Shown here in pieces: positions 776-59,567 of a stretch of DNA of 64,000 bases. Source of the DNA: Dehalococcoidia bacterium (lineage in GTDB: Bacteria; Chloroflexota; Dehalococcoidia; Bin125); NCBI GenBank assembly GCA_963555985.3, contig OY820591.1, positions 1,952,001-2,016,000 of the forward strand, in the 5' to 3' direction. How positions within the stretch are numbered: the first letter of the stretch is position 1; each line of letters begins with the position of its first letter. A model generated the notes under the pieces. That model made no database searches and was not told where the DNA came from. It worked only from the letters and a program-made list of their open reading frames with translations. The translations under genes were made by a program, and so were the position numbers.

Positions 776-2197
776 TTAGAGCTGATTTCTCATGCTGGCG
801 ATGCGGCCGCGGTCGAGCGGCGGGAGGTGGAAGAACTCGATCCGGGTGGTTGGAGCTTGGGGCCGGGGTTGGGCCAGCTCGTGGCAGTAGCGGTCGGCGT
901 CCAGGAGGTCGTCGTCGCGGTCTCGGGGTTGGGGGTTGGCGGCGCGGGGGTCTCGCCACTGGTACTCGCGCATCCGGCGCGGGAACTGGACGAGCTCGGG
1001 GGTGTAGAAGGAGGTGGGCGGGTCGTTCGAGAGGCGTTCTTGGACCAGGCCGATGCCCTGGTGGACGGAGCCGGGCCCGCCCCGGCTGGGGCGGATGTCG
1101 CGCCCGCGGCGGTGGAGGTGGTCGATCCAGGCGGATTGGCTGCGGTCGGCGTTCCAACTGATCGAGCCGAAGCGCCGGCGGCAGTGGAGCATCCACTGTT
1201 CGAGCCGTTGAGTGACGCCGGGGCCGCGGTCCTCGAACTCGGCCAGGCGGATGAGGACATTGGGTCCGCAGACGGCGTAGCGGGCGGTGAGGCCGGCGAC
1301 GATGCCGGCGGTGTAGTGGGCCTGCTCGGTCTGGGCGCCGAAGTCGAGGCCGCCGAGGTAACGCTCGAAGCTGGGCAGGCGCTTATCCCAGAGGTGGCGT
1401 TTGGGGTCGAACTTGGGGTAGACCAGACCCTCGAAGGCGTCGAAGCGGCCCTCGATGAAGCGTTCGACCCAGTCGGGCGGGAGCAGGGCGCGTTGCTGTT
1501 CGGCGTAGTTGTCGGGCAGATGGGGGTTGTCCTCGATCTTGGCGGGGATGAAGACTGCTTGTCCGCCGGCGTGCTCGAGTTCAGCTTTGTTCAGTTCGCG
1601 TTGGACGAACCAGCGCTCGAACCAGCCTGGGTGGGGGTTGGAGGCGGCCACGAACCAGCGTTGCGGTTGGGCCGGGTGGCGGAGTCTGGTCAAGAGCATT
1701 TGGGCGGCTTCTTCGGCGACTTCGCCGGCTTCGTCGATCAGGACGGTGCCGTACTGCTGGGAGCCGAGGCCGGTCCAGTCGGAGAGATGGCGAAAGTGGA
1801 TCGTGGAGGGTTCGCTCGAGTACTGGAGGCTGCTGACCGTGAGGGAATGGGTGGGTGAACTGCGGCGTTGGACGGTGAGGTCGGGGTCAGCGGTGCAGAT
1901 GCGCAGGAACTCGCCCATGGTCGTGGTGTAGAGGTCTGTGAACGTGTCGCGTGCGAGCAGGATGTTGTTGCCCGGGAAGATCAAGGCCGCGTCCAGGGCG
2001 AGCTCGGCCAGGGCGCGGGTCTTGCCGCCGCCCATGGCGCCGCCGTAGCCGACCAGGGCGAGGCCGGGATTGGGCACGGTAGCGACTGCGCAACAGAGCT
2101 CGCGCTGTCTGTCCGTCGGAAAAAAACCGCGAGACTTGTGCAAGCGGTCGAACGCAACGACCGCCCGCTTTGAGCTGGGGGTATTACTGTGGCTCAT
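776..2197 (-). CDS. terL: phage terminase large subunit (PBSX/Terminase_6-like)
   Basis: Walker A YGGAMGGGKT, Walker B VLIDEAGE, AASNPHPGW, DNPHLP, RNase H-like GGLDFG and DDDLLDADRY. Confidence 0.9.
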   Translation of the reverse strand: MSHSNTPSSKRAVVAFDRLHKSRGFFPTDRQRELCCAVATVPNPGLALVGYGGAMGGGKTRALAELALDAALIFPGNNILLARDTFTDLYTTTMGEFLRICTADPDLTVQRRSSPTHSLTVSSLQYSSEPSTIHFRHLSDWTGLGSQQYGTVLIDEAGEVAEEAAQMLLTRLRHPAQPQRWFVAASNPHPGWFERWFVQRELNKAELEHAGGQAVFIPAKIEDNPHLPDNYAEQQRALLPPDWVERFIEGRFDAFEGLVYPKFDPKRHLWDKRLPSFERYLGGLDFGAQTEQAHYTAGIVAGLTARYAVCGPNVLIRLAEFEDRGPGVTQRLEQWMLHCRRRFGSISWNADRSQSAWIDHLHRRGRDIRPSRGGPGSVHQGIGLVQERLSNDPPTSFYTPELVQFPRRMREYQWRDPRAANPQPRDRDDDLLDADRYCHELAQPRPQAPTTRIEFFHLPPLDRGRIASMRNQL

Positions 2198-2540: not shown

Positions 2541-2740
2541 GGGTCGGGGTTCCTCTCTTGCTGAATAAAGGACACTTGATCTTATATGGATGGGTGCTCG
2601 GGTGGGTAATTTGGGGGTGTGTCGTGGTTGACTGAGGGTTGGGGAGTCCCCCCCTCTGTCGCTACGCGACATCTCCCCCCGCGGAGGGGGGGAGAGGGGA
2701 GAAGAAGGGAAGGGGTGAGGTGAGGGTTGGGTGCTGGTCA

Positions 2741-2868: not shown

Positions 2869-3909
2869 TCCTAGTCTCACAGACGAAGTGCGACAGATGA
2901 TTGAGGTGAGCCCATGGGCGCGCAGTACACGCAGTTGGACCTGGCGGAGCGATGCGCGGTTGCCCGCTTACAGGCCGAGGGGCGCTCGATCCGGCAGATC
3001 GCTGCAGCTCTGGATCGCTCGCCATCGACGATTGCTCGAGAGCTGAAACGCAACACGGCGCGCGACGGCTACCGTCCCGACTACGCCCAGCAACAGGCCC
3101 AGGCGCGGCGCTGGCGCGGTTCGCGGCTGGAACGCGACGATCAGCTGCGCGCGCGGGTGCTGCGCGAGTTGGCCCGCGGGCTCTCGCCGCAACAGGTCGC
3201 AGGCCGGCTGGCGCGCGAGGCGGGCGCGCCGGTGATCTCGCACGAGAGCATCTACCGCTTCATCTACGCCCAAGCCTCGCGGGCCAAGCCCGGCCGCGGC
3301 GGCGGTTGGCGCCAGTATCTGCCGCGGCGCAAGGCGAAACGCGGTTGGCGCGGGCGCAAAGGCGGCAGTTCGGTCGAGCGCATCCAACTGCGGCGGCCCC
3401 TGAGCGAGCGCCCGGCGGCGGCCGCCGGGCGGCTCGAAGCCGGTCACTGGGAGGCCGACCTGATGCTCTTCGGGCGCGGCGGTCCGCTCCTGCTGATGCT
3501 GCACGAGCGCTCCTCGCGGCTGCTCGTGGGCTTGCCCGTGGCGGGCAAGGCGGCCGCTCCGGTCGCGCGCCTGCTGCTCAGCCTGCTCCGCGCCTGGCCG
3601 CCCGCCCTGCGGCGCACGGTCGCGTTCGACAACGGGACCGAGTTCGCCCGCCACTACGAACTGCACCGGCTGGGCGTGGAGACCTTCTTCTGCGACCCCT
3701 ACGCGCCCTGGCAGAAGGGCGGGATCGAGAATGCGATCGGACGCCTGCGCCGGGTCCTGCCGCGCCGGCTCGACCTCGCCCAACTCAGCCTCGCGCGTTT
3801 GATCGAAGTGCTGCAGTTGTACAACAACACCCCCCGCCAGTGCCTCGACTACCTCTCCCCGGCCGAAGTCTTCGGTCGGCAGTTGTTGCAGTTGCAATGT
3901 GAACCCACC
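2869..3909 (+). mobile_element. IS30-family insertion sequence (~1.04 kb)
   Basis: Imperfect terminal IRs (TCACA-N4-AA-N-TGC-N-ACA at both ends), flanking TT duplication, interrupts a repeat that is intact at 26421-26466; ends uncertain by about 1 bp. Confidence 0.85.
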
Positions 3910-3930
3910 TTCCCGCCTGCGCGGGAATGA
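2914..3930 (+). CDS. IS30-family transposase
   Basis: HTH SIRQIAAALDRSPSTIARELKRN, ISHESIY, GHWEADL, FDNGTEF, PWQKGGIENAIG, YNNTPR. Confidence 0.95.
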   Translation: MGAQYTQLDLAERCAVARLQAEGRSIRQIAAALDRSPSTIARELKRNTARDGYRPDYAQQQAQARRWRGSRLERDDQLRARVLRELARGLSPQQVAGRLAREAGAPVISHESIYRFIYAQASRAKPGRGGGWRQYLPRRKAKRGWRGRKGGSSVERIQLRRPLSERPAAAAGRLEAGHWEADLMLFGRGGPLLLMLHERSSRLLVGLPVAGKAAAPVARLLLSLLRAWPPALRRTVAFDNGTEFARHYELHRLGVETFFCDPYAPWQKGGIENAIGRLRRVLPRRLDLAQLSLARLIEVLQLYNNTPRQCLDYLSPAEVFGRQLLQLQCEPTFPPARE

Positions 3931-4025: not shown

Positions 4026-4841
4026 ATGTGCAGTGGGCGGACGACATCGACTCGCGTTCGAGCGGTTTTTCCTGATCCGCCACGACGGCCGGGGGATATG
4101 ACCAGCTTTAAACACATCGCGATCAGCGGGAATGCTCATCACCTGCTTCAGCACTTCATTGAGCGGGGCGGGCGGCCGGAGACCATGCTGGTTGGGGGCG
4201 AGCTGTATTTGAGTCCTGATTTCGGGGTGGGGCGGCGGGGATTGCGGGTGCCTGACCTGTTGGTGGCGTTCGATGTCGACATAGAGGCGTATTACCGCAG
4301 CAATGCGTATGTGATTTCGGAGCAGGGCAAGCCGCCCGACTTTGTGCTGGAGGTCGCTTCGCCGAGCACGGCGCGGGTGGATACGGGAGTGAAGCGGGAG
4401 GCGTACGCGGCGCTTGGGGTGGGAGAGTACTGGCGGTTTGACGAGACGGGGCGGTTGCATGGGGCGCGTCTGGCGGGCGACCGGCTGGTTGAGGGCGAAT
4501 ATGAGCCGCTTGCGCTAGAGGAGTTGTCGGCGGATGCGGTGCAGGGGTACAGCGCGGCGCTCGATTTGCATCTACGCTGGGAACGGGGCGAGCTGGTGTT
4601 CGTTGATCCGGCGACGGAACGTCGGATCCTGAGCTATGAGGATCAGCGTCTGCGGGCGGATGAGGAAACGGCGGCGCGGATTCGGGCGGAAGCGCAGCTC
4701 GACCAAGAAGAGGCAGCGCGCGTTCGTGAAGAAGCCGCGCGGGAGCGGGCGGAGGCCGCGCGCGAGCAGGCCGAGGCGCGAGTGCGCGAATTGGAACGAC
4801 AACTTGAGGGCCGCTCTGAGGGCGGCGAACAGGAAGCGTGA
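4026..4841 (+). CDS. Uma2-family PD-(D/E)xK endonuclease with coiled-coil tail
   Basis: VPDLLVAF, PPDFVLEVASPST, K-x3-YAALGVGEYWRFD; start codon uncertain. Confidence 0.85.
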   Translation: MCSGRTTSTRVRAVFPDPPRRPGDMTSFKHIAISGNAHHLLQHFIERGGRPETMLVGGELYLSPDFGVGRRGLRVPDLLVAFDVDIEAYYRSNAYVISEQGKPPDFVLEVASPSTARVDTGVKREAYAALGVGEYWRFDETGRLHGARLAGDRLVEGEYEPLALEELSADAVQGYSAALDLHLRWERGELVFVDPATERRILSYEDQRLRADEETAARIRAEAQLDQEEAARVREEAARERAEAAREQAEARVRELERQLEGRSEGGEQEA

Positions 4842-6548: not shown

Positions 6549-6750
6549 GTGGTTGGGGGACCCCCCTCTGTCACTTCGTGACATCTCCCCCCGCAGTGCG
6601 GGGGGAGAGGCTCCGGGTTTAGGGGGTTGGGTGCTGGATGTGGCGTTTCACCCCCTCTGCCCCGTTGGGGCATCTCCCCCTTGAGGGGGAGATTCTTGGG
6701 GGGGCGGGGTAGTATTGAGGGACTGGGCGGTTGCCGGGGATGGAGTTGGT

Positions 6751-8343: not shown

Positions 8344-8582
8344 GGGGGTTTTGGGGGATATGAGTGTACGGATCGCTTAGGGGACCCCCCTCTGTCCCCC
8401 CGCCTTCGCGGGGGCAGGCTCTACGGGACATCTCCCCCCGCAAGGGGGGAGAGGGGAGCTGGGGTTTGGGGTTGGTAGTGCTCACGGCGAGATACCCGCG
8501 GCAAGCGCGGGTATGACGGAGCTGTGGGCGCGGGAATGACGGAATGTGGGATTACGCGCAGGTCTCCTTGAGGGGGAGCGGG

Positions 8583-8789
8583 TTAGGCGGGGTCGTCTTT
8601 GGGGTGGGGGGTGTGGAGAGGGAGCGGGGTGCGCTGGGATTGTTTGCAGCGGCGGCAGCGCCAGACGACGACGATGTGGGCTTCGTAGTCGTGCTCGACG
8701 ACGCTGTGGAGGGCGGGGCGGCCGTTGTGTTGGACGCTGGGGCAGTCGGGGTTTTGGCAGCGGACTTCCTGCTTGTGCGGGCCGGTCAT
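8583..8789 (-). CDS. small zinc-ribbon protein, Com-like
   Basis: EVRCQNPDC...WRCRRC in 68 aa; AAGGAG RBS; directly downstream of the portal candidate. Confidence 0.6.
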   Translation of the reverse strand: MTGPHKQEVRCQNPDCPSVQHNGRPALHSVVEHDYEAHIVVVWRCRRCKQSQRTPLPLHTPHPKDDPA

Positions 8790-8831: not shown

Positions 8832-10778
8832 TCAGGGATGGGGGACGCGCTCGTCGGCGGGATCGGTGAGCGGGGAGAGCGGGGGCAGGTGGGCGCGAGT
8901 CGTGATCGAGGCCGCCGAGCTGGGTTGGGTCTTGGCGGACGGGCTGACGGTGGCGAGTTCGCGCTCGAGTTCGGCTTGCTCGCGACGCCAGGCGCGATGC
9001 CGGGCGAGCGTTTCGGCGGCGTGCTCGTCGCCGATGTACTGCTCCAGATAGGCGCGCTGGTCAAGCGGATCGAGTGGATCATTGAGGCGGGCTCGTCCAT
9101 GTTCCTGGACGGCGATGCGCTGGGCGGTGGAATAGGGATCGATCCAGACGTCGATATCGAGTTCGGCGAGTTGTTCGGGGGGGACGCCGACGGTTTCGCT
9201 GCGGCGCACGCGCCCGTCGCCGGACTTGGCATAGGTCCAGACCGGGCCGCCGAAACCGCCCTCGGCGAGGGGCTTGGACATGACCAGGGCCATGTTGCGC
9301 AGCATCACCCGCACCGCGCGGGCTTGATTGCGCTTGAGTTGTTGCACCTGCAAGCTGCGCGAGCCGAGCAGCAGATTGAGCGTGTGGGGTTGGGTGTTGG
9401 GGCCGATCTCGCCGCGTTCGACCGCGCCCGCGTCGGGGGCGGCGGCGATCAGTTCGTCGGCGGACATGCGCAGGAATTCAACGAAGGCGGGGTCGATCCG
9501 AAACTCGATGCGGTGCAGCGATGCGCCCTGGGGGAGGGTGCGCGCGGCGGCGGTATCGGGCGTCAGGGCGACCCGGTTGCCGTCATCATCGGTCTGCCAG
9601 GAGCCGTCGGCGAGTTGGACCCAGTAGAGCGGGAGCGCGGTCTGTTCGGCGAGGAAGCGTCCGAGTGAACGCTCGTAGTCGTAGCCCGGCTTGACGCGAT
9701 AGACGCCTTCCATCGCGGGTTCCCAACGGTAGAGCGGATCGGGATGTTCGTTGACGTCGGCCTCGGCCAGGACGAAGGGCGGCATTTCGTAGGGATGGGG
9801 ATGGGACTTGATCAAGAGCCAGCGGTCGTTGGCGGGGGCGGGGGCGGCCAGTTCGTAGTACTCGCGGCGGGTCCAGACGGAGGCGACGCGGATGCGCTCG
9901 CCCCAACCGTCCCCCGACGGTTCATCGGCCTGGGGCGCAGCGGCCGGGCTGCCGATCGCCAGTGAGGGTTCGTCACCGAGCCGATGTAGGCGAAGCTCGA
10001 TGCGGTCTTGACGGCGCACGCGATCGCGGTAGTCGAACAGAGCCAGTTCACGGAGGACGACCGCGAGTCCAAGTCCGTTGCCGGCCCCGCGATCTTCGAT
10101 GAAGGCGAACTGATCGGGGCGGATGACCTCGATTTCCCAAGGGAAGCCGGCGTTGGCCTGCGCCTGCCGATCGCGGTTACGGCGGCTCGCTTCGGTTTCG
10201 ATCCAGTCGGCGTCGGCGTGATCGTTGGGTTGTGCGCGGCGGAAGCGTTGTCGTTCGCCGGGGTCGCGCGGCTCCGTGTCGCGGGTTTCGGCGGGCGGAT
10301 AAGCGGGCAGCCGGTCGAGCGCGCGTTGCCAGTGAAGCACGCCGAAGCAAAGGCAAACCTGTCCATAGCCGAGCGCGGCCTGGATGTTGATGCCGCTGCG
10401 TTCCTGGAGCAGGCGCAGTCCGTGCTCAAAGACGTGTTCGAGATCGTCGGCGGCGCGGCGGGCCGCGTCGGACTGATCGGGCGGCTCGACGTGGACGCGC
10501 AAGGGATGCTCGGTCAGGCGCTGGCGGAGCTGCGCCCAGGTGCGTCGGAGCAGGTCGGTCTGCCACGGTTCGGCCTTGCTGTGAGTCTTGTCGAAGCGGG
10601 GATTGACCGCTTCGCTGTTGTAGAGGTGCTGCTCGCGGTGGAGGATGCGGTCATGCAGAACTCCGAAGCGAGTCAGCGCGCCGCCGCCGGCGCGTCCGCG
10701 TCCGCCTCCCAACTGTTCGAGGATGCGATTGAGGTCGTCCTCGGAGAGGGTGTGTGCCAAGATTCGGTTGTGCGACAT
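8832..10778 (-). CDS. putative phage portal protein
   Basis: ~650 aa with portal-like segments (FPWEIEVIRPDQFAF, HPYEMPPFV, helical C-terminal half); terminase and capsid genes in the same window. Confidence 0.6.
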   Translation of the reverse strand: MSHNRILAHTLSEDDLNRILEQLGGGRGRAGGGALTRFGVLHDRILHREQHLYNSEAVNPRFDKTHSKAEPWQTDLLRRTWAQLRQRLTEHPLRVHVEPPDQSDAARRAADDLEHVFEHGLRLLQERSGINIQAALGYGQVCLCFGVLHWQRALDRLPAYPPAETRDTEPRDPGERQRFRRAQPNDHADADWIETEASRRNRDRQAQANAGFPWEIEVIRPDQFAFIEDRGAGNGLGLAVVLRELALFDYRDRVRRQDRIELRLHRLGDEPSLAIGSPAAAPQADEPSGDGWGERIRVASVWTRREYYELAAPAPANDRWLLIKSHPHPYEMPPFVLAEADVNEHPDPLYRWEPAMEGVYRVKPGYDYERSLGRFLAEQTALPLYWVQLADGSWQTDDDGNRVALTPDTAAARTLPQGASLHRIEFRIDPAFVEFLRMSADELIAAAPDAGAVERGEIGPNTQPHTLNLLLGSRSLQVQQLKRNQARAVRVMLRNMALVMSKPLAEGGFGGPVWTYAKSGDGRVRRSETVGVPPEQLAELDIDVWIDPYSTAQRIAVQEHGRARLNDPLDPLDQRAYLEQYIGDEHAAETLARHRAWRREQAELERELATVSPSAKTQPSSAASITTRAHLPPLSPLTDPADERVPHP

Positions 10779-10780
10779 GC

Positions 10781-10846
10781 GAGCGCCTTTCACCACACGG
10801 GAATGGGTAGGCGCTCAATAGTGAAATGTCAGTTCGCTGATGTCAA
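10781..10846 (-). promoter_or_regulatory. portal leader: TTGACA-17-CACTAT promoter candidate and GAGCGCCT/AGGCGCTC hairpin over the RBS
   Basis: tgtcaa at 10841-10846; inverted repeat 10781-10788 / 10809-10816 ending 2 nt before the ATG. Confidence 0.5.
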
Positions 10847-11939: not shown

Positions 11940-12174
11940 GGTTGGCAAGATAGCTGCGGGGGTTTGCCGGACCCCCGCTGTCGCTTCGTGACATCTCCCC
12001 CTCAAGGAGACTTGTGCATAAGTCGATTTTCTCCCGTCATTGCCGCGGCGGAGCGCGGCAATCTCGCTGTGCGCACGACGATGGTGCAGATAAGGGCGTC
12101 ATACCCGCGGCAAGCGCGGGTATGACGAGGCTTGTTGGAGAGGGGATGAGAGGGTTGCGGTTGTTGCGGGGGTC

Positions 12175-13413
12175 TTAGTTTTGGGCGACGGCGCGGACGG
12201 CGACGGTTCCGCCTTCGAGGGGGTCGGTGATTTGGCCGGCGAGGCCGGGGTGGGCGGCGGGACGGTCGAAGTTGATGGAGGCGAGGTTGGCGAGGTAGTC
12301 GTCGTACTGGCGCTGGCGCAGGTTCTTGAGCTTGTCCAGGCCGGCCTGGAGGTTTTCGAGGCCGCCGGCGAGGAGGACGATCAGGGCTTCGCGCTCGGAG
12401 GTGCTGAGGCGCATTTCCTGGACGAGGGAGGCTTCGGCGCGGAGGAAGGAGATGGGCAGGCGGCGGTCGGCGTCGGGCTTGTAGCGGTCGTACCACTCGA
12501 GGTGTCCGAGGCCGTAGTCGAGGTGGCGGCGGGAGTCGGCGGCGATGCGGGCGAAGATGTCGCGCTCGACGTCGGTCTGGGCCCACTCGGAGGCGGACTC
12601 GAAGAGGGTGACTTCGTAGCTTTTGTAGACGACGTTGAGGGCGATGATCATGTCGGTGAAGGTGAGGCCCTGGTACCAGCCACGGTAGATTTGACCGAGT
12701 GGGGCTTGTCCGAGGCCGCCGCCGTTGATGAGGGCGCGCTTGCGGAGGACTTCGACCTTGCGTCCGGCGTCGAAGGCTTGGGTGGCGAGGAAGAGCTTGA
12801 CTTCGTGGAAGCCGTAGGAGATTTCTTCGAGCCAGCGGCCGATGATCTTCTGCTCGACGAGGCCGTTGTTGCTGTAGACGGTGCAGATTTGTCCGACGGC
12901 CTTTTCGAGTTCTTCGGGCAGTTCTTCGAGGCCGTTGGCCCAGTCGAGTTCGGTGGCCGGAGTCCAGCGGGCCTTGATGGCGTCTTCGTAGAGGTCGACG
13001 GCGTTTTCGGACCAGACTTCGGCCTTGTCGAAGATGGAGTAGCCGGCGGCCATGATCTGACCGGTGGTTTCGGTGCCGCGGGGGGCGTCGTTGGGGAGTT
13101 GCCAGTTGTCTGGGACGACGCCGTAGCTGCCGATGTTGATGTCGCGCAGGCGGAGACCGTCGGGGCCGGGCGTCGCCTTCAATCCAACCTCCGCCGGAGA
13201 GTTGAAGATGTTGAAGGGGGCCTTGCCGAAGGGGTTGTCGGGATGGTTTTCGAGGAAGTCGAGCCAGCCGTTGATTTTTTCTTCGCTCAGTTCGCCCCGG
13301 GCCAGGTTCTCGACTTGCTTGTCGGTGGCTTCCGAGGCTTCGATGCGTTCGAGGAGTGCGTCGGACCAGCCAGCCTTGCGGGCGCGGACTTTGGTCATGG
13401 TGGAGAGTTGCAT
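12175..13413 (-). CDS. ferritin-like (diiron oxygenase-type) protein with degenerate iron ligands
   Basis: Paralog of the upstream gene (KAEVWSENAVDLYEDA, RKRALINGGG), but the ExxH motifs read DAGRK and DSRRH. Confidence 0.7.
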   Translation of the reverse strand: MQLSTMTKVRARKAGWSDALLERIEASEATDKQVENLARGELSEEKINGWLDFLENHPDNPFGKAPFNIFNSPAEVGLKATPGPDGLRLRDINIGSYGVVPDNWQLPNDAPRGTETTGQIMAAGYSIFDKAEVWSENAVDLYEDAIKARWTPATELDWANGLEELPEELEKAVGQICTVYSNNGLVEQKIIGRWLEEISYGFHEVKLFLATQAFDAGRKVEVLRKRALINGGGLGQAPLGQIYRGWYQGLTFTDMIIALNVVYKSYEVTLFESASEWAQTDVERDIFARIAADSRRHLDYGLGHLEWYDRYKPDADRRLPISFLRAEASLVQEMRLSTSEREALIVLLAGGLENLQAGLDKLKNLRQRQYDDYLANLASINFDRPAAHPGLAGQITDPLEGGTVAVRAVAQN

Positions 13414-13599
13414 GGGGGCTCCGGCGGTTAAACGGCTGCGGTCTTGAGGGTGTCTGGGGACCCCCCTCTGTCCCTACGGGACCTCTCCCCCCGCGATGCG
13501 GGGGGAAAGGGGACCTGATTTCGGGACGACTCCCTCTGCGATGCGGGGGGAGAGGGGGCTGATTTCGGGACGGTTCTCTCCGCGCTGGGGGGAGATGGA

Positions 13600-14646
13600 C
13601 TAGTTGTCTTCGCCGACGAGGGCTCGGACTTCTGGGGCGAAGCGTTCGGCGCGGTCGAGGCCGATCACTTCGAGGCGGTGGGCGTACTCGACGAACTGCT
13701 TTTTGCGCATGAGCATGACCATGTTGTAGCCCTCGTCGAGGTGTTCAATGCCGCCGCCGGAGAGGATGGCGAGGGCTTCGCCGGTGAGGGGGTTGGTGGT
13801 CAGGCTGGTCTGCTGGCTCTGGGTGAGGAGAGCTTCCTGCATGTCGAGGATGTGGTGCAGTTCTTCCTTGCGCCAGGGTTCGGTTTCGACGGTGTACTTG
13901 AGGTGGGTGACGCCGAAGGCGAGGTGTCGGGACTCGTCCTGGGCGGAGAGGCGGAAGATGCGCTTCTCGGCTTCGTTCTGGGCGATCAGTTCGCCCATGC
14001 GGAAGAGGGTCTGGACGAAGCCCTCGCCGACGAGGTGGAGGAGGGCGGTCATTTCGGTGAAGTCGTCGGAGCTGAGCAGCTGGACGGCGCCGATGCCGGC
14101 GCCGGACATGCCGCCGCCGTTGATGAGGGTGCGCTTGCGGAAGACGTCGAGGTGTCGGGCTTCGTCCATGAGCTGGGTGCCGAGGAAGAGCTGGGACTCG
14201 AAGAATTCGGGGTGAATCTGTTCGAGGAAGCGTCCGGGGACGTCGCCGGCGATGAATTCGACCTGAGTGAGGAAGGTGCAGAGGGTGCACATGGCGCGCT
14301 CGAGGTCGGGGGACATTTCGTCGATGGTGTCCCAGGGGATGTCGCGGGCAGAAGACCACTGGCGCTGAAGCGCCTCTTCGTAGAGCAGCATGGCGGATTC
14401 GGTCCAGACGTCGGCCTTGTTCATGTGCTGGACGCTGTTGGAGGGCGAGCGTGGGTCGGCGGCGGCGCCGCGCGGGGCCCACTGTCGCTGGCGGGCTTCG
14501 TCGCGGTCGTCGACGCCGTAGGTGAGTTGGTTGATCGTCTCCAGCGTGAGCCCTTTGCGCCCGGTCTCGATCTCCATGCCCTGCTCGGTATCGACGTTGA
14601 GCCAATCGAGGTTGATTCCGGGGAGGTCGTGCTGAATCGTGGCCAT
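13600..14646 (-). CDS. ferritin-like diiron-carboxylate protein
   Basis: QVEF...DEARH...GEGF...DESRH, the complete E/ExxH/E/ExxH ligand set. Confidence 0.8.
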   Translation of the reverse strand: MATIQHDLPGINLDWLNVDTEQGMEIETGRKGLTLETINQLTYGVDDRDEARQRQWAPRGAAADPRSPSNSVQHMNKADVWTESAMLLYEEALQRQWSSARDIPWDTIDEMSPDLERAMCTLCTFLTQVEFIAGDVPGRFLEQIHPEFFESQLFLGTQLMDEARHLDVFRKRTLINGGGMSGAGIGAVQLLSSDDFTEMTALLHLVGEGFVQTLFRMGELIAQNEAEKRIFRLSAQDESRHLAFGVTHLKYTVETEPWRKEELHHILDMQEALLTQSQQTSLTTNPLTGEALAILSGGGIEHLDEGYNMVMLMRKKQFVEYAHRLEVIGLDRAERFAPEVRALVGEDN

Positions 14647-16216: not shown

Positions 16217-16240
16217 GCTGTAGCCATTGACCGGAGCGAC

Positions 16241-16930
16241 ATGTCCACTGCCGATGCCTCATCCACCGCCCAAACCTTGGTCCGCTTCCGCCTGCCGGAA
16301 CCGCCGGAGCGGAATCCCGACGAAGTGACTTCTTACGACTACGTCCATCTGACCGGCAACCCGCATTTCCTGGCGCAGCATTTCGCCCAGCCCGAGACGA
16401 CGCTCGTCAGCGCGGAGCGCTACCTCGTCGCCGCTCGCGGCTCTCGACTGCGCCGCGTCCCCGACCTGCTGATCGCCTTCGACGTCGATCCCGAGCTGTA
16501 CTACGAGCAGAACGGCTACGTGATCGCCGACCAGGGCAAGCCGCCCGATTTCATCCTCGAGGTCGCTTCGCCCAGCACGGCGAAGATCGACACGGTCGAC
16601 AAGCGGCGCGACTACGCCGCCCTGGGCGTGCGCGAGTACTGGCGCTTCGACCACACGGGCGAGTGGCACGGCGCGCGTTTGGCCGGCGACCGCCTGGTCG
16701 GGGAGCGCTACGAGCCGATCCCGATCGTGGAGTTGTCGCCCGGCGTTTTGCAAGGCGAGAGCGAAGCCTTGGGTCTGTGGCTGCGCTGGGAGCAAGGCGC
16801 GCTCGGTTGGTACGACCCGGCGACGGGGCGGCACATCCCTACCTTCGACGCGGAGCGGGAAGGCCGCTTGGCTGCGGAAGCGCGGGTGCGGGAGCTTGAG
16901 GCGGAGTTGCGGCGGCGCGGGGAGCGCTAG
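16241..16930 (+). CDS. Uma2-family endonuclease
   Basis: VPDLLIAF, PDFILEVASPST, YAALGVREYWRFD. Confidence 0.85.
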   Translation: MSTADASSTAQTLVRFRLPEPPERNPDEVTSYDYVHLTGNPHFLAQHFAQPETTLVSAERYLVAARGSRLRRVPDLLIAFDVDPELYYEQNGYVIADQGKPPDFILEVASPSTAKIDTVDKRRDYAALGVREYWRFDHTGEWHGARLAGDRLVGERYEPIPIVELSPGVLQGESEALGLWLRWEQGALGWYDPATGRHIPTFDAEREGRLAAEARVRELEAELRRRGER

Positions 16931-16962
16931 CGGCGTATCCTCCAACCACCGACCGGAGCGAC

Positions 16963-17694
16963 ATGTCCACTGCCGATGCCTCATCCACCGCCCAGACCTT
17001 GGTCCGCTTCCGCCTGCCGGAACCGCCGGAGCGGAATCCCGACGAAGTGACTTCTTACGACTACGTCCATCTGACCGGCAACCCGCATTTCCTGGCGCAG
17101 CACTTCGCCCAGCCCGAGTCGACGCTCGTCAGCGCGGAGCGCTACCTCGTCGCCGCTCGCGGCTCGCGACTGCGCCGCGTCCCCGACCTCCTAATCGCCT
17201 TCGATGTCGATCCCGAGCTGTACTACGAGCAGAACGGCTACGTGATCTCGGACCAGGGCAAGCCGCCCGATTTCATCCTCGAGGTCGCCTCGCCCAGCAC
17301 GGCCAAGATCGACACGATCGACAAGCGGCGCGACTACGCCGCCCTGGGCGTGCGCGAGTACTGGCGTTTCGACCACAGCGGCGAGTGGCACGGCGCTCGG
17401 TTGGCCGGCGACCGCCTAGTCGGCGAGCGCTACGAGCCAATCCCGATCGTGGAGTTGTCGCCCGGCGTCTTGCAGGGCGAGAGCGAGGCCCTGGGTCTCT
17501 GGCTGCGCTGGGAGCAGGGCGCGCTGGGTTGGTACGACCCGGCGACGGGGCGGCACATCCCTACCTTCGACGCCGAGCGCGAAGGCCGCTTGGCTGCAGA
17601 AGTACGAGCAGATACGGAGCGAGCGGCGCGGTTGGCTGCGGAAGCGCGGGTGCGGGAGCTTGAGGCGGAGTTGCGGCGACGGGGAGGGCGGTAG
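16963..17694 (+). CDS. Uma2-family endonuclease (tandem duplicate)
   Basis: Near-identical to 16241-16930 with a 14-aa longer coiled-coil tail. Confidence 0.85.
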   Translation: MSTADASSTAQTLVRFRLPEPPERNPDEVTSYDYVHLTGNPHFLAQHFAQPESTLVSAERYLVAARGSRLRRVPDLLIAFDVDPELYYEQNGYVISDQGKPPDFILEVASPSTAKIDTIDKRRDYAALGVREYWRFDHSGEWHGARLAGDRLVGERYEPIPIVELSPGVLQGESEALGLWLRWEQGALGWYDPATGRHIPTFDAEREGRLAAEVRADTERAARLAAEARVRELEAELRRRGGR

Positions 17695-17832
17695 TCGGCC
17701 TCTTGGCTCTGAGCGGCTCTGGGAAGGGGGCGAGGGAGCTCAGCGGGGCCGGCTGGGGGCAGCTGGGGACCCCTCTCTGTCCCCCCGCCTTCGCGGGGGC
17801 AGGCTCTACGGGACATCTCCCCCCGCAGTGCG

Positions 17833-17950
17833 GGGGGAGAGGGGGACTTGCTTCGGGACATCTGCGCTTGCGGTGTAGGGGGAGAGGGGGACTTGCTTCG
17901 GGACATCTGCGCCTGCGGTGTAGGGGGAGAGGGGGACTTGCTTCGGGACG
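17833..17950. repeat. 45-bp tandem repeat (about 2.6 units) derived from the REP flank
   Basis: GGGGGAGAGGGGGACTTGCTTCGGGAC three times with near-identical intervening 18-mers. Confidence 0.8.
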
Positions 17951-18102
17951 GCTCGCTTGTGGTGTGGGGGAGTTGAGATTCTGGGTTTGCAGAGCTCTCA
18001 CATGACGCTTACGCGGGCTGTTCGGAGGGCTTACATATGGCCCGTAGGTTGATTGTTGTCGAGGGGGTGCCCGAGTGAGTGCGCTCCTGCGGTTAGCTGG
18101 AG

Positions 18103-20737: not shown

Positions 20738-21071
20738 TTGGGGCGCATTGGGTGCTGTGAGGAGTGCGCTTCGTCGGACGGGGCCCCTCCGTTACTTCGT
20801 GAGATGTGGTGTAGCAGATAGCACGGCGGCGTTCTCACCCCCTCTGCCTTCGGCATCTCCCTCCCCGCCTGCGCGGGGACAGGCTCTCAAGGGGGAGATC
20901 GATTTTGGTCTACGTGCAGGTCTTCCAAAAGGGGAGGTTTTGGGAGTTAGCCGACGGCACCGTCGGTGGCGCGCCGGTCGTGTTCGCGACGACGGTACAG
21001 GTCATGGCGAGATACCCGCGGCAAGCGCGGGTATGACGGAGTATTGGGTGCGAGGAGGGGAGGTTTGGGGG

Positions 21072-23558
21072 TTAGCCGAGGGTTCCGGCGGCGGCTAGGC
21101 GGGTGATGTCGGTGTCGGTGTAGTGGAGGAGGTGTCGGAGGATGTGTTCGGTGTGTTCTCCCCAGAGGGGGGCGCGCTCGGTTTTGAGGCGCTGGTTGTC
21201 CCAGAGGATGGGTTCGTGCTGGATGTGGAGGCTGGGGCCTTCGGGGGATTGGGCGTGGTGATAGTTGGCGCGCATGGCGTGGTCTTGCTCGAAGAAGTCG
21301 CGCAGGCGCTCGACGGGGCTGGCGGGGAGGCCGGCGTTGAGCAGGAGTTGGGCGGCGCTCCACTCATCGTGTTGGCTCGACCAGCTAGAGATCGCGGCTT
21401 CGATTTCGTCTTCGGCGGCTTGGCGGCCGGAAAGCGTGGCGAAGTCGTCTCGCGCGGCAAGGTCGGCTCGTCCGATCACACGGCAGAGGGATCGCCATTC
21501 GTTGTCGCTGCGGCAGGCGAGCGCCAGCCAGCGATCCTCGCCGGCCGCGGGGAAGACTCCGTGCGGAGACATCCAGGGAGAGCGGTTGCCGATGCGGGGG
21601 CGTTCGGGGATGCCGTTGAGAGCTTCGAGCAGTTCGGTGTCGAGGAGGTGGGTGGCGGTTTCGTATTGCGCAACCTCGACGTAGCTGCCCTCGCCGCTGC
21701 GCTCTCGTTGCTCCAGGGCTGCCAGGACGGCGGCGGCGAGATAGTAGGGGACGGTGAAGTCGGTGTGGAGGGTACCGAGGCAGATGGGGGGTTGGTGTCC
21801 GAAGCCGGAGCGGTAGGCGAGGCCGCTCATGCCGACGATGCCGTTGCCGTAGGAGCGCCACTCGGCGCGGGGGCCTTCGATGCCCATGACGGCGACGTTG
21901 CAAAGGATGATGGCGGGGTTGATTTGGGAGAGCACGTCGTAGCCCACGCCCCAGCGGTCGAGGACGTAGGGGGTGTAGTTGGAGGTGACGACGTCGGCGG
22001 TTTCCGCCAGCCGGAGGATCGCTTCGATTCCCTCCTCCGTCTTGAGATTGAGGGTGCAGGAGAGTTTGTTGGCGCTGCAATCGTTGAAGACGCCGTTGGT
22101 GTTGAGGGAGAAGCGATCGGGCGGTTGGACACCGATATAGCGGATGGGGTCGAGGCGTCCCTCGGATTCGATTTTGATGACTTCGGCCCCGAGGTCGGCA
22201 AGGAGGCGGGTACCGAGTGGTCCGGCGATAGCCCAGCAGAAGTCGAGGATGCGGACGCCGGCGAGGGGTTGGCGTGGGGGTGGTTGGGGGACCCCCCTCT
22301 GCCGCTTCGCGGCATCTCCCCCCGCACTGCGGGGGGAGAGGGGAGCGTGCTTCGGGGCATCTTCGTCTGTAGTGCGGGGAGAGAGGGGAGCGGGCTTCGG
22401 GGCGTCTGTTGCTGTCGGGAGGGAGGTGAGGATTTCGTGGGTGTGTTCTCCGAGCATGGGGGCTCGTTTGGCTTGGGGTTGTTGGCCTCGTTGGCGGATG
22501 GGTGGGCGGGGGAAGGTGAGGGCCTGGTTGAGTTGAGGATGGTGGACTTCTTGGTAGAAGCCTCGGGCGCGGAGGTGGGGATCGTTGGCGACTTCTTCGA
22601 CGGTGTGGATGGGGAGGACGAGCAGGCTGCGGCGCTGGCCTTCGCTGGTGAGTTGTTCGAGGGTGAGGGTCTCGCAGAGGCGGACGACCCAGGGGCGGAT
22701 TTCTTGGTTGAAGTTGAGGTTGCGATAGCCCTCGTCGTCGAAGCGCGCTTCGTGGAGGACTGCGGCGTCTTCGAAGACGCGGTCGCACCAGTCGACGAAC
22801 TTGTACCAGTGGGGCGGGTGGATGGTGAAGGTGAGCCAGTGTCCGTCGGCGCTTTGGAAGGTGGCGCCGCTGCCGATGGGGGTGTGGCGGTCGGGGGAGT
22901 GGTTGTGCCAGGGGTGATAGTTGCCGTTGGCGGTCTGGAGGGTGGTGAAGGCGACGGCTTCCTGCATCCCGACCGTGACCCAGCCGGGGTCTCCGCCGCG
23001 GCGGCGTTGGGTGATCATGGCGAGGGCGGCTTCGGCGGCGACGAGTGAGATTTGCTTGTAGGCGAGGTTGCCGGCGGGCCAGAGGGGCGGGTCTTCGGGG
23101 AAGCCATTGAGGACGATGTGTCCGCCGGCCGCCATCGCGGTCAGGTCAGTCACTGGTTCAGGTTCGCGTTCGTTGCGTCGGAAGACGCAATCGACAACTG
23201 GGATTTGGTGTGTCCAGAGGCCGTCGCGTCCGCGTTGGAGCCAGTCGGCGAGCGCCGGCGCGGGCTGCAAGGGCGCGAGCAGGGCGTCGCAGCGGGGGAG
23301 CATGGTTTCGACGGTTTGCCAGGTGTCGGGGTCGTCGAGATCGACGGCGAGGGAGCGTTTGCCGGCGTTGTAGAGGAGGTGCGCCCAGCCGCGTTCGAGG
23401 CGGTCGGCGTCTGTGTCGAGGGCGGGTTCGCGTCGGCGGAGTTGGTCTCCGCGCTGATCTTCGATGCGGATGACGTCTGCGCCGAGGTCGGCGAGCAGGC
23501 GCGCGCCGAGGGCGAGCGGCTCGTCGGTGAGGTCGAGGATGCGGATGTGATTGAGCAT
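21072..23558 (-). CDS. tandem two-domain CaiB/BaiF CoA-transferase
   Basis: Two ILD..., RLLADLGA(D/E)VI(R/K)IE and APxxGEHT units. Confidence 0.9.
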   Translation of the reverse strand: MLNHIRILDLTDEPLALGARLLADLGADVIRIEDQRGDQLRRREPALDTDADRLERGWAHLLYNAGKRSLAVDLDDPDTWQTVETMLPRCDALLAPLQPAPALADWLQRGRDGLWTHQIPVVDCVFRRNEREPEPVTDLTAMAAGGHIVLNGFPEDPPLWPAGNLAYKQISLVAAEAALAMITQRRRGGDPGWVTVGMQEAVAFTTLQTANGNYHPWHNHSPDRHTPIGSGATFQSADGHWLTFTIHPPHWYKFVDWCDRVFEDAAVLHEARFDDEGYRNLNFNQEIRPWVVRLCETLTLEQLTSEGQRRSLLVLPIHTVEEVANDPHLRARGFYQEVHHPQLNQALTFPRPPIRQRGQQPQAKRAPMLGEHTHEILTSLPTATDAPKPAPLSPRTTDEDAPKHAPLSPRSAGGDAAKRQRGVPQPPPRQPLAGVRILDFCWAIAGPLGTRLLADLGAEVIKIESEGRLDPIRYIGVQPPDRFSLNTNGVFNDCSANKLSCTLNLKTEEGIEAILRLAETADVVTSNYTPYVLDRWGVGYDVLSQINPAIILCNVAVMGIEGPRAEWRSYGNGIVGMSGLAYRSGFGHQPPICLGTLHTDFTVPYYLAAAVLAALEQRERSGEGSYVEVAQYETATHLLDTELLEALNGIPERPRIGNRSPWMSPHGVFPAAGEDRWLALACRSDNEWRSLCRVIGRADLAARDDFATLSGRQAAEDEIEAAISSWSSQHDEWSAAQLLLNAGLPASPVERLRDFFEQDHAMRANYHHAQSPEGPSLHIQHEPILWDNQRLKTERAPLWGEHTEHILRHLLHYTDTDITRLAAAGTLG

Positions 23559-23785
23559 TGGGGGAGGATAGCGGTGGGTGTTGCGGGGGCTGGTTGGGTT
23601 TGGAGTGGATTGTGGCGTGCGGGACCCCCTCTGTCCCCCCGCCTTCGCGGGGGCAGTCGCTGGGGGACATCTGCTCTTGTGGTGTGGGGAGAGTGATTGA
23701 GAATGTCTGTGTGATGTAGATTACATTTGTGGAATTTGAGTTCTCTGGGCGTCTTGGGTAAGTTTGGGTTTCCGAGCACGACTGC

Positions 23786-23854
23786 TGCGCGCCTCCGAGC
23801 GCCGAACGGACAGAGACCGTCGGCGCTCGCAGTGTTTTGAAGGAGGCGCGTATG
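23786..23854 (+). promoter_or_regulatory. RBS-sequestering leader structure of the capsid operon
   Basis: TGCGCGCCTCC (23786-23796) pairs with GGAGGCGCGTA (23842-23852) and encloses a GAGCGCCG/CGGCGCTC hairpin. Confidence 0.6.
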
Positions 23855-26013: not shown

Positions 26014-26256
26014 ATGACCGAACAGCGAGCAACGGCCGACCAGCCGCCTCCCGCGTGCGCGCGCGGGGCGGCTGGCGGTCCCGCCAACTGCGAGTGCGCC
26101 TCGACCGGCGCGCTCTGGCAGTATCTGCGCCGGATTGAAGGCGGACTCGACCAGATCGAGTCCCGGATCGACCGGCTCTACGTCGCGATCGGGGGCGGGA
26201 CTGTGTTGTTGGCGGCGATCAGTTTCGGAGCGGCGTTTATCGCTCGCGGGGGCTGA
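26014..26256 (+). CDS. small coiled-coil plus C-terminal TM protein (XhlA-like architecture)
   Basis: LRRIEGGLDQIESRIDRL followed by a hydrophobic helix; GGAG RBS. Confidence 0.55.
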   Translation: MTEQRATADQPPPACARGAAGGPANCECASTGALWQYLRRIEGGLDQIESRIDRLYVAIGGGTVLLAAISFGAAFIARGG

Positions 26257-26391
26257 GGGGGTGAGACGTGACGTGGCAGACGGGACCGCGGCGTTTTCAC
26301 CCCCTCTGCCCCCCCGCCTTCGCGGGGGCAGGCTCTTTGGGGCATCTCCCCCTCGAGAGACTTTCGCAACACTCCCCGAACTCCACGCTTC

Positions 26392-26788: not shown

Positions 26789-27501
26789 GCAGCACCAGCA
26801 CGAGGGTCCGGCCGGCGCCGGATTTGAGCGGGATTCGGGGTTTGCCGGAGGGTGCGGCGACGATCTGGGCGCCTGCCCATCCGAGCAATTTCTACGCCGC
26901 TGGCTCGCCGGACCCGAAGCGGGGCGGCAGCGCTCCCTACCGGGGCGCGCCGCGCCGTATGGTAGCCATCTGCTACCACACGCCGGAGGAACCCTGGGAC
27001 GACCGCGAGACGACGCCGGAGTGGTTCGCCAATCCCCAGGCGAACGCCTCCACGGGCTACTACGCGGACAGCGACGGCGACCTGTACCAAATGGTGCGGG
27101 ACGCCGATTTCGCCTGGGCGCAGGGAGTGCGGACAGCGCAGCTGGTGCTGCCGCGGCCGCTCTGGTGGCGTGACGAATACGTCTCCTACAACACCTGCAT
27201 GGCCTCAATCGAGATCGAGGGCTACGCGGATCGGATCGGGGAGACGTTCACGGTCGGCAGCCGCCAATTCGCCTCGGTGGTGGCCTGGTCGGCCTATATC
27301 TGCCGGAAGTACGGGATTCCGCCGGAGCGGGCGTATCACCTCGGCCACTCGGAGTTGACGCAGCGCAAGCACGACCCGGGCCCGGCCTTTCCCTGGGAAC
27401 CGTTGCTGGCGGCGGTGGCGGCGCAGCTGGCGCTGGCGGAGCGGCCGCTGGAGGCGCGCGTGTTGGAGTTGGAGCGGCGCGTGTCTGTACTGGAGCGGTG
27501 A
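26785..27501 (+). CDS. N-acetylmuramoyl-L-alanine amidase (Amidase_2, endolysin-like)
   Basis: ICYHTPE, ASTGYY, AWAQG, SIEIEG, GHSEL, KHDPGPAFPW; no signal peptide. Confidence 0.88.
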   Translation: MSSTSTRVRPAPDLSGIRGLPEGAATIWAPAHPSNFYAAGSPDPKRGGSAPYRGAPRRMVAICYHTPEEPWDDRETTPEWFANPQANASTGYYADSDGDLYQMVRDADFAWAQGVRTAQLVLPRPLWWRDEYVSYNTCMASIEIEGYADRIGETFTVGSRQFASVVAWSAYICRKYGIPPERAYHLGHSELTQRKHDPGPAFPWEPLLAAVAAQLALAERPLEARVLELERRVSVLER

Positions 27502-27936: not shown

Positions 27937-28038
27937 GGGCGGACTGGGGGAGGGATCCCCCTCTGTCCCCCCGCGATGCGGGGGGAGACAGGGAGCCGGG
28001 TTCCCTCACGATGTGGTAGGAGAGGATGGAGCGAGGGC

Positions 28039-47575: not shown

Positions 47576-48220
47576 CTACCGCGCCGTCTCTGACCAGACC
47601 CGAGCGAATGCGATCGTCAAGCCCTCGCAAGGCGGCTCCGCCGACAACTCCGCCGGTTCCCGATGCTCCACCACATCCTCATCCGGCCGATACACCCAGA
47701 CCGTCCGCGACTGCGGATCCACCAGCCAACCCAACTGCGCCCCGTTCCGCATCCACATATTCATCCTCCGTCGCTGACTGGCGAGCGATTGCGTCGACGA
47801 TCGCACCTCAACCACAAAATCCGGCACCACATGCGGATAAGGTCGTTCCCCCGACTGTGCCCGCGCCGCCGTCTCCGGGCTGAGCCAGCCAGCATCGGGC
47901 ATTCGAGCATTATCGTCCGGCAGGTGGAGGGTCGAGCTGGCGAACAGGGTGCGGCCGATACGCTCCGGATCCCACGCGCCGATCTGGAGCGTGATTTCTC
48001 CGCCGACGCCATCGCTGTCATAGTCTGGACCTGGTGACACAATCAACCTCCCCGCTTCGTCGCGCTCGAAGAACAACCGGTCGTTGAGTCCCGCGATCTC
48101 GCAGAGCAACTCATCCGTGAGCGCCACCGATTCCGGAAACTCAATCACCAACTCGTCCAACACCATCGGATGCTTGAAGCCAAGCGCTTCCGGCTTCACC
48201 TGCTTCTCGGCTGTGACCAT
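47576..48220 (-). CDS. Uma2-family endonuclease
   Basis: PDAGW, PDFVVEVRS, GWLVDP. Confidence 0.85.
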   Translation of the reverse strand: MVTAEKQVKPEALGFKHPMVLDELVIEFPESVALTDELLCEIAGLNDRLFFERDEAGRLIVSPGPDYDSDGVGGEITLQIGAWDPERIGRTLFASSTLHLPDDNARMPDAGWLSPETAARAQSGERPYPHVVPDFVVEVRSSTQSLASQRRRMNMWMRNGAQLGWLVDPQSRTVWVYRPDEDVVEHREPAELSAEPPCEGLTIAFARVWSETAR

Positions 48221-48314
48221 GCTCCACCTCTCAGAACCATGATAGGTACACTGCGTAGTACCTGAGTTCTATCCCCTTGCTCATAACCTACAGCTACGAC
48301 CGAGAGGAGCCGCG

Positions 48315-59348: not shown

Positions 59349-59567
59349 TGCTAAAATCCCTCCCCAAGCGCAAGCGCGCCACAGCTACCGCCGATCCTAC
59401 CCGATACCCAACATCCACAACTCCCCGACAGATCTCCCCCTCAATGGGGAGATGCCGCGCAACGGCAGAGGGGGTGAAAACGCCAAACCCAGCACAACCC
59501 TCCCCCGTAAATCCGCCCTCCCTCCGCGAAGGCGGGGAGACAGAGGAGGCTCTACTCATCCCACCCC

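Follow-up and report, generated by a model that had tools for sequence, protein, structure and literature searches.

A rare, lineage-specific hairpin stem shared by the leaders of two phage-like head genes in a Dehalococcoidia chromosome

Why should two genes that lie 13 kb apart in a bacterial chromosome carry the same hairpin stem in their 5' leaders? The question is raised by a 64,000-nt stretch of DNA from a Dehalococcoidia bacterium (contig OY820591.1, positions 1,952,001 to 2,016,000, forward strand; hereafter the window), in which the gene for a portal-like protein and an operon for scaffold-like and major-capsid-like proteins are each preceded by the palindromic motif GAGCGCC...GGCGCTC. 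The window is bacterial chromosome of 66% G+C in which GCGC is abundant, and the relatives of its proteins are found in Dehalococcoidia and Chloroflexota genomes. The explanation put forward here, tentatively and with less than even confidence, is that the two structures are lineage-specific leader hairpins that would occlude the ribosome-binding region and damp translation, in the portal leader by fold-back and in the scaffold leader by a clamp that pairs with the Shine-Dalgarno (SD) sequence. Coordinates of the features discussed are collected in the table below.

The shared stem is real. With its arms 10 to 30 nt apart (GAGCGCC-N10-30-GGCGCTC), the motif has exactly two matches in the window (10781-10816 and 23797-23828), both in 5' leaders, against 0.13 expected from shuffles, and none of 100 shuffles reaches two. 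The original prediction, made from the sequence alone, had also pointed to a compensatory eighth base pair (T-A in one copy, G-C in the other) and to a GCA on the 3' side of each stem, and both details are confirmed. With both strands counted, the 10-mer GGCGCTCGCA has just two occurrences in the window, those at the two hairpins. The hairpins are oriented alike toward their genes and lie 2 and 23 nt from the start codons. What they have in common is confined to the 7-8-bp arms and the GCA; the loops (20 and 16 nt) show no relation in sequence or length. Neither the expectation that further copies would precede other virion genes nor a relaxed search was rewarded in the window: arms with up to two mismatches gave no further convincing hairpin, and no copy precedes the terminase, capsid-proximal or amidase genes.

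Could the pair nevertheless be two unrelated G+C-rich leader hairpins that happen to have the same arms? In a window this rich in GCGC, GAGCGCC occurs 17 times and GGCGCTC 26 times, the motif was defined after it had been seen, and, as described below, the hairpin is not conserved in orthologs. When the 46 intergenic regions were shuffled with dinucleotide composition preserved, 0.16 region pairs sharing a 7-bp hairpin arm were expected, and at least one such pair arose in 12.5% of 200 shuffles. These figures leave some room for coincidence, but the number of matches to the full motif exceeds what shuffles provide, the 10-mer is confined to the two sites, and the complementary eighth pair, the identical GCA and the same orientation are found together before two head genes. 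The eighth pair, the GCA, the orientation and the closeness to the start codons make pure chance unlikely (by the authors' estimate, not by computation), and coincidence as a full account of the pair is rated as improbable.

The portal leader can be read against those of relatives. A genome scan with the portal-like protein yielded 43 loci (numbered L001 to L043), amounting to 858,394 nt of related DNA, or 922 kb together with the window; 41 orthologous portal leaders were compared, the locus L034 being excluded (5' end missing). In 20 of the 41, the portal promoter has the architecture cTTGAC(a/t)-N5-GAAC-N4-xTTC-t-CATAAT, of which the window's TTGACA...GAACTGACATTT...ACTATT is a decayed ortholog. 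The TTGACA-17-CACTAT promoter that had been proposed for this gene is thus placed by homology, whereas its -10 hexamer matches TATAAT at only three of six positions and went unreported by a consensus promoter scan; what makes the promoter credible even so is its orthology to one that relatives conserve. The N-termini of the relatives' portal proteins align from residues 2-11 of the 10778 start. The 5' arm of hairpin 1 begins 1-2 nt past the -10 hexamer, and a transcript from the gene's own promoter, whose position is fixed by homology to the 20 promoters, should therefore start inside that arm.

The folds predicted for this leader depend on where the RNA begins. A 61-nt RNA that starts upstream of the -10 hexamer folds at -22 kcal/mol (z = -3.1); in this long form a 9-bp stem lies over AAAGG, and a second helix, between GACAU (10830-10826) and AUGUC, lies over the AUG. 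A transcript from G10814 would keep six stem pairs (-15.3 kcal/mol, z = -1.6), and one from G10812 would keep four (-10.0 kcal/mol, z = 0.0). As the earlier claim that the stem covers the AAAGG SD sequence requires, that sequence (10790-10786) overlaps the 3' arm of hairpin 1, lying partly inside it. On the minus strand, a scan reported no terminator-like site separating the portal promoter from its upstream neighbour, and read-through into the portal gene is therefore possible. A ranking by structure of 64 gene leaders in the window (-60 to +10) places the portal leader fifth.

On the scaffold side the original prediction had placed a GTG start directly after the second GCA, but this GTG (23832-23834) is out of frame with the open reading frame (ORF), for which TTG 23837 and ATG 23852 are the available starts. 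The likely start is ATG 23852, which is preceded by the ribosome-binding site GAAGGAGG; this leaves 23 nt, rather than 3, between hairpin 2 and the start codon. Here the shared stem is part of something larger. Hairpin 2 is extended inward by a bulged A and an inner helix (3 bp in the folds, 4 bp by hand) closed by a 7-nt loop, and it is the inner of two tiers in a helix of about 23 bp, whose outer tier pairs a CCUCC anti-SD with the GGAGG of the SD. The scaffold SD thus lies outside the shared stem and is covered by the outer helix 23786-23796 / 23842-23852. Predicted stability is high, with -43.2 kcal/mol for 76 nt (z = -5.5) and -49.9 kcal/mol for 97 nt (z = -4.9); none of 200 shuffles folds as well, and the leader ranks second for structure among the 64. 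The predicted transcript start, near 23774, lies upstream of the whole two-tier structure.

From what can be observed directly (the sequences, the rarity of the stem, the predicted folds, the homology of the portal promoter and the absence of the stem from orthologs), we infer transcription starts, a translational effect and, possibly, a trans-acting factor. Both hairpins would hide the translation-initiation region and hold translation down, adding a post-transcriptional layer to control of the promoters through a LexA-like operator of the GAAC-N4-GTTC type. A portal transcript from the gene's own promoter would start inside the 5' arm, fold weakly and be translated; silencing would fall on read-through RNA from the upstream gene, in which the whole 8-9-bp stem over the SD is joined by the GACAU/AUGUC helix over the start codon. 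In the scaffold leader this stem would serve as the inner tier of a helix whose outer, anti-SD tier pairs with the SD. Identical 7-bp arms and GCA joined to unrelated loops might reflect one trans-acting reader of the stem, either a protein or a double-strand RNase; alternatively, one leader element may have been copied to the other. Two other explanations were tried and set aside. An intrinsic terminator or attenuator is rejected because no U run directly follows the stems (hairpin 1 has none, and at hairpin 2 UUUU comes just 6 nt past the stem), and scans of the gene strand reported nothing terminator-like at either hairpin. As for known RNA families, Rfam 15 gave no gathering-score match in the whole window, and neither hairpin is covered at E <= 1.

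Several observations weigh against translational occlusion as the common role of the two hairpins. The hairpins differ in their relation to the SD (inside the stem in one, outside in the other) and to the predicted transcript start (straddled in one, about 23 nt downstream in the other), and a single mechanism is therefore not obvious. Occlusion of a ribosome-binding site, moreover, needs no identical stems. The transcription starts are predictions, CACTAT is weak and no consensus promoter was found for the scaffold operon, and the genome is rich in palindromic repeats. Comparison with relatives adds to these points. The original prediction expected the motif to recur in orthologous leaders, and it is present in none of the 41 orthologous portal leaders, most of which are unstructured and A+T-rich (z = +0.9 for L001). 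A covariance model built from the two copies (R1) found no other member in the 922 kb, the next best hit having E = 0.7 and lying outside leaders. A different structured element does occur in some relatives, as described next, but its model (R2) matches neither leader of the window, its best hit (E = 0.32) lying elsewhere, and there is therefore no evidence that the structures are homologous.

In the related DNA, GAGCGCC-N10-30-GGCGCTC has two matches, both in or beside portal coding sequence and none in a leader, and the motif is likewise absent from the actinomycete locus L043, whose portal-like protein is 23% identical. A quick, midpoint-rooted tree (41 rows; L032, L034 and L043 left out) places the window as the first branch of one of two clades. 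The other, clade B (L022-L025, L029, L031, L033 and L039; n = 8), carries a different, near-invariant, G+C-rich portal-leader hairpin of 40 nt, GCAGGCCCGGCGCGCCACAGGGGCTCAGGCGCTGGAACTGC, whose distance from the portal AUG is 0 to 6 nt according to how far its outer helix forms. The element lies some 50 nt ahead of the portal start (as at 9921-9966 in L023) and is present once per locus amid flanks that have otherwise diverged; it shows no double compensatory change and has no Rfam match. Structured portal leaders are therefore not unique to the window genome. Homology of this hairpin to those of the window was considered and is not supported: MAFFT alignment suggests some likeness, but the R2 result just given does not bear it out.

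The abundance of palindromes in this chromosome bears most directly on another reading, in which the hairpins belong to a small selfish family of the repetitive extragenic palindrome (REP) or miniature inverted-repeat transposable element (MITE) kind, two copies of which came to lie in leaders by landing or drift with no virion-specific role. The window is packed with REP-like palindromes, which fall into two or more families (roughly 15 and 6 members). Some 112 to 114 perfect hairpins of at least 7 bp occur in about 9-9.7 kb of intergenic DNA, compared with about 20 in shuffles, and 111 to 112 region pairs have a common arm, nearly all of them from the two large families. Family 1 consists of tandem-hairpin repeats that fill intergenic regions, with a core CCCCTCTG-stem-loop-stem-CATCTCCCCCCGC-NNNN-GCGGGGGGAGAGG whose stems vary compensatorily between copies; family 2 is built around GTCATACCCGCG...CGCGGGTATGAC. 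Their expansion in relatives is patchy, family 1 having 26 motif matches in L006 and none in many other loci, and family 2 having expanded strongly in L029 (32 matches) and L041 (8). Lineage-specific palindromic families therefore do arise here, and in a window full of REP-like repeats a third, tiny one is a serious rival. On the opposite strand, the two hairpins even read TGC followed by the palindrome, a pattern reminiscent of the conserved 5' tag of REP elements. However, a selfish family would number just two members in the 64-kb window and would be missing from intergenic DNA throughout the 858 kb of relatives, and its members would share only a stem and GCA, whereas the REP-like families here are alike over their whole length. 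Both copies also sit between promoter and start codon in the same orientation, which by the authors' estimate would be rare for random insertion, and a Pfam scan of the window revealed no REP-associated transposase. A selfish origin is accordingly considered unlikely, if deserving of attention.

The original prediction went further, proposing that a common cis element ties the dispersed head-gene modules into one regulon. The stem, absent from the 41 orthologous portal leaders, does not support this, but another element does: a GAAC-N4-xTTC promoter box, which, as the comparison of promoters supports, is what links the modules across the lineage and is a candidate LexA-like operator. Strict boxes in intergenic DNA number 38 across the 43 loci; 23 of these, in 22 loci, lie directly upstream of the portal ORF, and five, in four loci, lie upstream of an operon of small genes and the terminase gene. 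A relaxed box abuts the -10 hexamer in 6 of 12 terminase-operon promoters examined (L004 left out), and by eye several others have a box with one mismatch at the same place. Many of the relatives' portal leaders have a second box about 20 nt downstream, and in clade B the sequence AGAAC-N4-GTTTG lies over the -35 hexamer of the portal promoter. In the right half of many boxes A or C stands in place of G. The small genes beside these boxes in relatives have no Pfam match. The intergenic region 16987-17168 of L039 contains four copies of a box-like 16-mer, AGGAACCGTCATTCCT, the first 118 nt upstream and the other three spaced 24 nt apart. The box resembles the GAAC-N4-GTTC LexA (Cheo-type) box of Gram-positive bacteria and Dehalococcoides, and it is on this Gram-positive consensus that the candidate identification as LexA would stand.

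Within the window the picture is mixed. The best weight-matrix match, scoring 12.2, precedes the capsid operon and overlaps its candidate -35 hexamer, while the portal box scores 4.1 and has decayed, and the terminase promoter retains TAAGAT beside a box decayed to GAGC-N4-ATCC. A weak GAGCAC match noted earlier before the terminase locus is indeed present, but it is the left half of this decayed box. Boxes scoring at least 10 are not enriched (3 versus 3.75 in shuffles). One further operator-type box, TAGTACCTGAGTTCTA (48256-48271), stands before a gene for an O6-methylguanine DNA methyltransferase (48315-48833, plus strand), a placement that would fit a DNA-damage regulon. Divergent from the terminase operon, beside its decayed box, lies the gene for an IS30-type transposase (HTH_38 and a weak rve match; 2914-3930, plus strand). 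Taken with the counts in relatives, the decay and the absence of enrichment in the window leave it fairly probable that the head genes are co-regulated by a GAAC-N4-GTTC-type box, bound by LexA or a phage-type repressor, and that the hairpins are secondary and lineage-specific. This account overlaps with that of translational occlusion.

A role at the level of DNA was also weighed, in which GAGCGCC and GGCGCTC are the half-sites of a repressor operator, or in which the two sites act as short inverted repeats (TGC-palindrome at 10778-10816, palindrome-GCA at 23797-23831) that invert the 13-kb segment between them and swap promoters. The first site, which covers about +1 to +36 of the transcript predicted for the portal gene, has a classic operator position, but the spacing of the half-sites differs by 4 bp (36 versus 32 bp overall) and therefore does not fit a rigid dimer, and each 7-mer is, as noted, common in the window. 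The two sites face opposite ways, and inversions distinguish the clades in the order of genes around the portal gene; those inversions, however, carry the portal gene, its small neighbour and its promoter as a unit rather than the 13-kb segment. No recombinase gene adjoins either site, the sole transposase being that of the IS30 type. The proposal, in either form, is regarded as improbable.

What kind of genes would carry such leaders? The gene labels on which the original prediction relied hold fully for one gene and partly for the rest. The large terminase is identified above cut-off (Terminase_6N, 38.1 bits versus 22; phrog_2, E = 1.9e-26), whereas the portal, capsid and scaffold labels are only partly verified. 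The 648-amino-acid portal-like protein has no match in Pfam, PHROGs, NCBIfam, PDB sequences or a tblastn search of phage genomes, and the four databases likewise gave none for 28 of its homologues in alignment or for 31 distant members; a comparison with the P22 portal by hhalign was not significant (probability 0.9%, E = 0.059). In a search of Atlas language-model features with the homologue P0022 as query, by contrast, viral clusters were retrieved in which the named families were all portal (score 0.97), and the protein, of which 99 homologues were found, is probably a portal. Some of its distant homologues contain a DnaJ-type CxxCxGxG finger. The adjoining 68-amino-acid zinc-ribbon gene, which tblastn places beside the portal gene in 41 of 43 loci, accompanies it in the inversions between clades, and its product is a candidate partner or regulator. 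For the capsid-like protein, a 313-residue reading from 24280 matches Phage_capsid (PF05065, E = 1.5e-3) and Phage_capsid_4 (PF25209, E = 5.6e-3), both below cut-offs; 55 homologues of about 293 residues were found, two of them with a PF25209 match, and PHROGs and PDB sequences gave none for the window protein. The scaffold-like protein has no family match. Beyond these, no tail genes were identified in the window, but an amidase gene is present: a gene for an 80-residue protein with a C-terminal hydrophobic segment (26014-26256, plus strand) and one for an Amidase_2 protein (26959-27501, plus strand) follow the capsid-proximal genes and form a possible holin/endolysin pair; in L009 their homologues lie about 6 kb from the portal gene.

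The head genes are interspersed with ordinary cellular genes (DUF885, DsbA-like thioredoxins, recF, CoA-transferases and Uma2 nucleases). The portal-like protein is 56-70% identical in 42 of 43 loci, about as well conserved as RecF (49-65%), and its neighbourhood of DUF885, thioredoxin, zinc-ribbon, two diiron-oxidase-like and recF genes is kept in 35-41 of 43. The terminase gene lies within 10 kb of the portal gene in 13 of the 43 loci and the capsid gene in none, and capsid homologues are present in the same lineage as portal homologues, seven of the contigs that carry them being equal in length to contigs with portal homologues. The head genes thus look like a long-kept, dispersed, phage-derived set rather than a recent prophage. 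More than 40 Dehalococcoidia species retain terminase, portal-like and capsid-like genes amid housekeeping genes and with an apparent common SOS-type operator, a pattern that would be expected of a domesticated particle system rather than of a decaying prophage. Against this background the hairpin pair on its own is a small, lineage-specific cis element; if functional, it would show a bacterium placing phage-derived head genes, their transcriptional operator boxes decayed, under an added safety catch at the level of translation. It is enticing to speculate further, although the proposal is highly doubtful, that the hairpins are operators of a dedicated post-transcriptional regulator, the zinc-ribbon protein or a head protein, which would couple portal synthesis with scaffold and capsid synthesis in an SOS-box-controlled, vertically inherited, gene-transfer-agent-like domesticated particle system of marine and sponge-associated Dehalococcoidia, the first in Chloroflexota. 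A literature search found no report of such a particle system or gene transfer agent in that phylum.

Table. Positions of the leader elements, head genes and repeats (window coordinates unless a related locus is named)
Feature	Position	Strand	Basis or remark
Large terminase	776-2077		Terminase_6N and phrog_2 matches
Terminase promoter remnant: decayed box GAGCACCCATCC (2599-2588), ATA, TAAGAT	2581..2599	minus	compare GAAC-N4-GTTC-gag-TAAGAT-CGAG in relatives
Zinc-ribbon protein, 68 aa, CxxC...CxxC, directly after portal gene	8583..8789	minus	translation
Portal-like protein, 648 aa	8832..10778	minus	probable portal
GC, then portal ATG	10778-10776	minus	start 2 nt past hairpin 1
Hairpin 1: arms GAGCGCCT (10816-10809) and AGGCGCTC (10788-10781), loop 20 nt	10781..10816	minus	
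Alternative -10 ACTATT	10817-10822	minus	position homologous to CATAAT of relatives
-10 hexamer CACTAT, then T	10823-10818	minus	sequence
Decayed operator box GAACTGACATTT in promoter spacer	10824..10835	minus	relatives carry GAAC-N4-[ACG]TTC here
Spacer between TTGACA and CACTAT, 17 nt		minus	sequence
-35 hexamer TTGACA, portal-gene promoter	10846-10841	minus	sequence and architecture of relatives
Operator-type box GAATTTGAGTTC, overlaps candidate -35 of capsid operon	23733..23744	plus	best weight-matrix match in window, 12.2
Candidate weak promoter TTGAGT-17-TAAGTT, scaffold/capsid operon	23736..23764	plus	found by eye; no promoter reported here by consensus scan
Anti-SD strand UGCGCGCCUCC, pairs with 23842-23852	23786..23796	plus	predicted folds
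Hairpin 2: arms GAGCGCCG (23797-23804) and CGGCGCTC (23821-23828), 16 nt between	23797..23828	plus	
GCA after hairpin 2	23829-23831	plus	sequence
SD strand GGAGGCGCGUA, up to A of start codon	23842..23852	plus	sequestered by anti-SD strand in folds
Scaffold-like acidic protein, 136 aa, rich in charged residues	23852..24262	plus	named from position and composition only
Major-capsid-like protein, 293 aa	24340..25221	plus	sub-threshold capsid matches
Family-1 repeats	590-750, 2637-2698, 6549-6710, 8380-8449, 11959-12020, 13449-13563, 17765-17977		
Family-1 repeats, continued	20863-20887, 22280-22431, 23619-23688, 26294-26363, 27952-27998, 51220-51259, 59423-59552		
Family-2 repeats	2741-2794, 8504-8536, 12034-12145, 20945-21056, 51262-51373, 62636-62671		
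Diiron-oxidase-like pair in relatives	L001 13962-16396		equivalent positions in other loci

Several features of the window are of interest in their own right. One of the family-1 repeats (22280-22431) lies within an 828-residue ORF (21072-23558, minus strand) that encodes two CoA-transferase family III domains joined by the repeat copy of about 50 codons; it appears that a REP-like repeat is read through in frame as an interdomain linker or has fused two genes. The diiron-oxidase-like neighbours of the portal gene are two adjacent proteins (12175-13413 and 13600-14646, both minus strand) that only faintly resemble R2-like diiron ligand-binding oxidases. Across relatives their identities reach 82-90% and 93-96%, as against mostly 76-80% for DUF885 (67% in the most distant) and the lower values of RecF, a degree of constraint that seems unusually strong for proteins that lack a family assignment. 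Five genes for putative endonucleases of the Uma2 family are found in the 64 kb (4098-4841, 16241-17694, 47576-48220 and 56598-57251), two of which form a tandem pair that is 97% identical over 300 nt (16224-16523 and 16946-17245). Finally, a gene for a 1320-residue fused restriction-modification enzyme of the Eco57I/MmeI type (41263-45225, minus strand) adjoins two HicB-like antitoxin-type genes.

How do these leaders compare with known systems? For the portal leader the closest parallel is the fold-back inhibition of the IS10/IS50 transposase mRNAs, reportedly described by Davis, Simons and Kleckner in 1985, in which only read-through transcripts are said to fold and be silenced. As in that system, the 5' arm of hairpin 1 would lie upstream of or across the gene's own start, given the predicted promoter position, with the 3' arm over the SD and AUG; unlike it, the window gene is no transposase and its transcript start is predicted, and the scaffold hairpin, lying inside its transcript, would act as a constitutive clamp. 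Leader hairpins that come in pairs and are recognized by a single phage factor are known from the boxB elements of lambda nutL/nutR and from putL/putR of HK022, which act on transcription elongation and in which loop and overall shape are conserved. The window pair likewise comprises two similar stem-loops, each downstream of its own promoter within one phage-derived gene set, but here the stem alone is shared, the loops are unrelated and the ribosome-binding region is touched, and terminator scans showed no downstream terminators at the window hairpins. The MS2 coat operator, T4 RegA and gp32, and P22 scaffold autoregulation exemplify translational operators and autoregulated virion proteins. 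A hairpin at the SD and AUG of a virion gene could similarly bind a protein that balances synthesis; the window element differs in its absence from 41 orthologs, in a scaffold SD that lies outside the shared stem and in a trans factor that is hypothetical.

At the level of DNA, the hairpins resemble REP elements and bacterial interspersed mosaic elements (BIMEs) in being G+C-rich palindromes with a short conserved flank in a genome that hosts such families, and they differ in number (two copies), in location (both in 5' leaders beside start codons) and in their unconserved loops. The promoter element resembles Cheo-type LexA boxes in that GAAC-N4-GTTC-like palindromes lie over the -35, spacer or -10 of portal and terminase promoters, and departs from them in the A or C that replaces G in the right half of many copies and in the decay of the window's portal and terminase copies. 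For the gene set as a whole, the system that comes to mind is the Rhodobacter capsulatus gene transfer agent (RcGTA). The window set differs from it in that no tail genes were identified; like RcGTA, it consists of head and packaging genes kept among housekeeping genes in many species, distributed over several loci and apparently joined by a common regulatory box.

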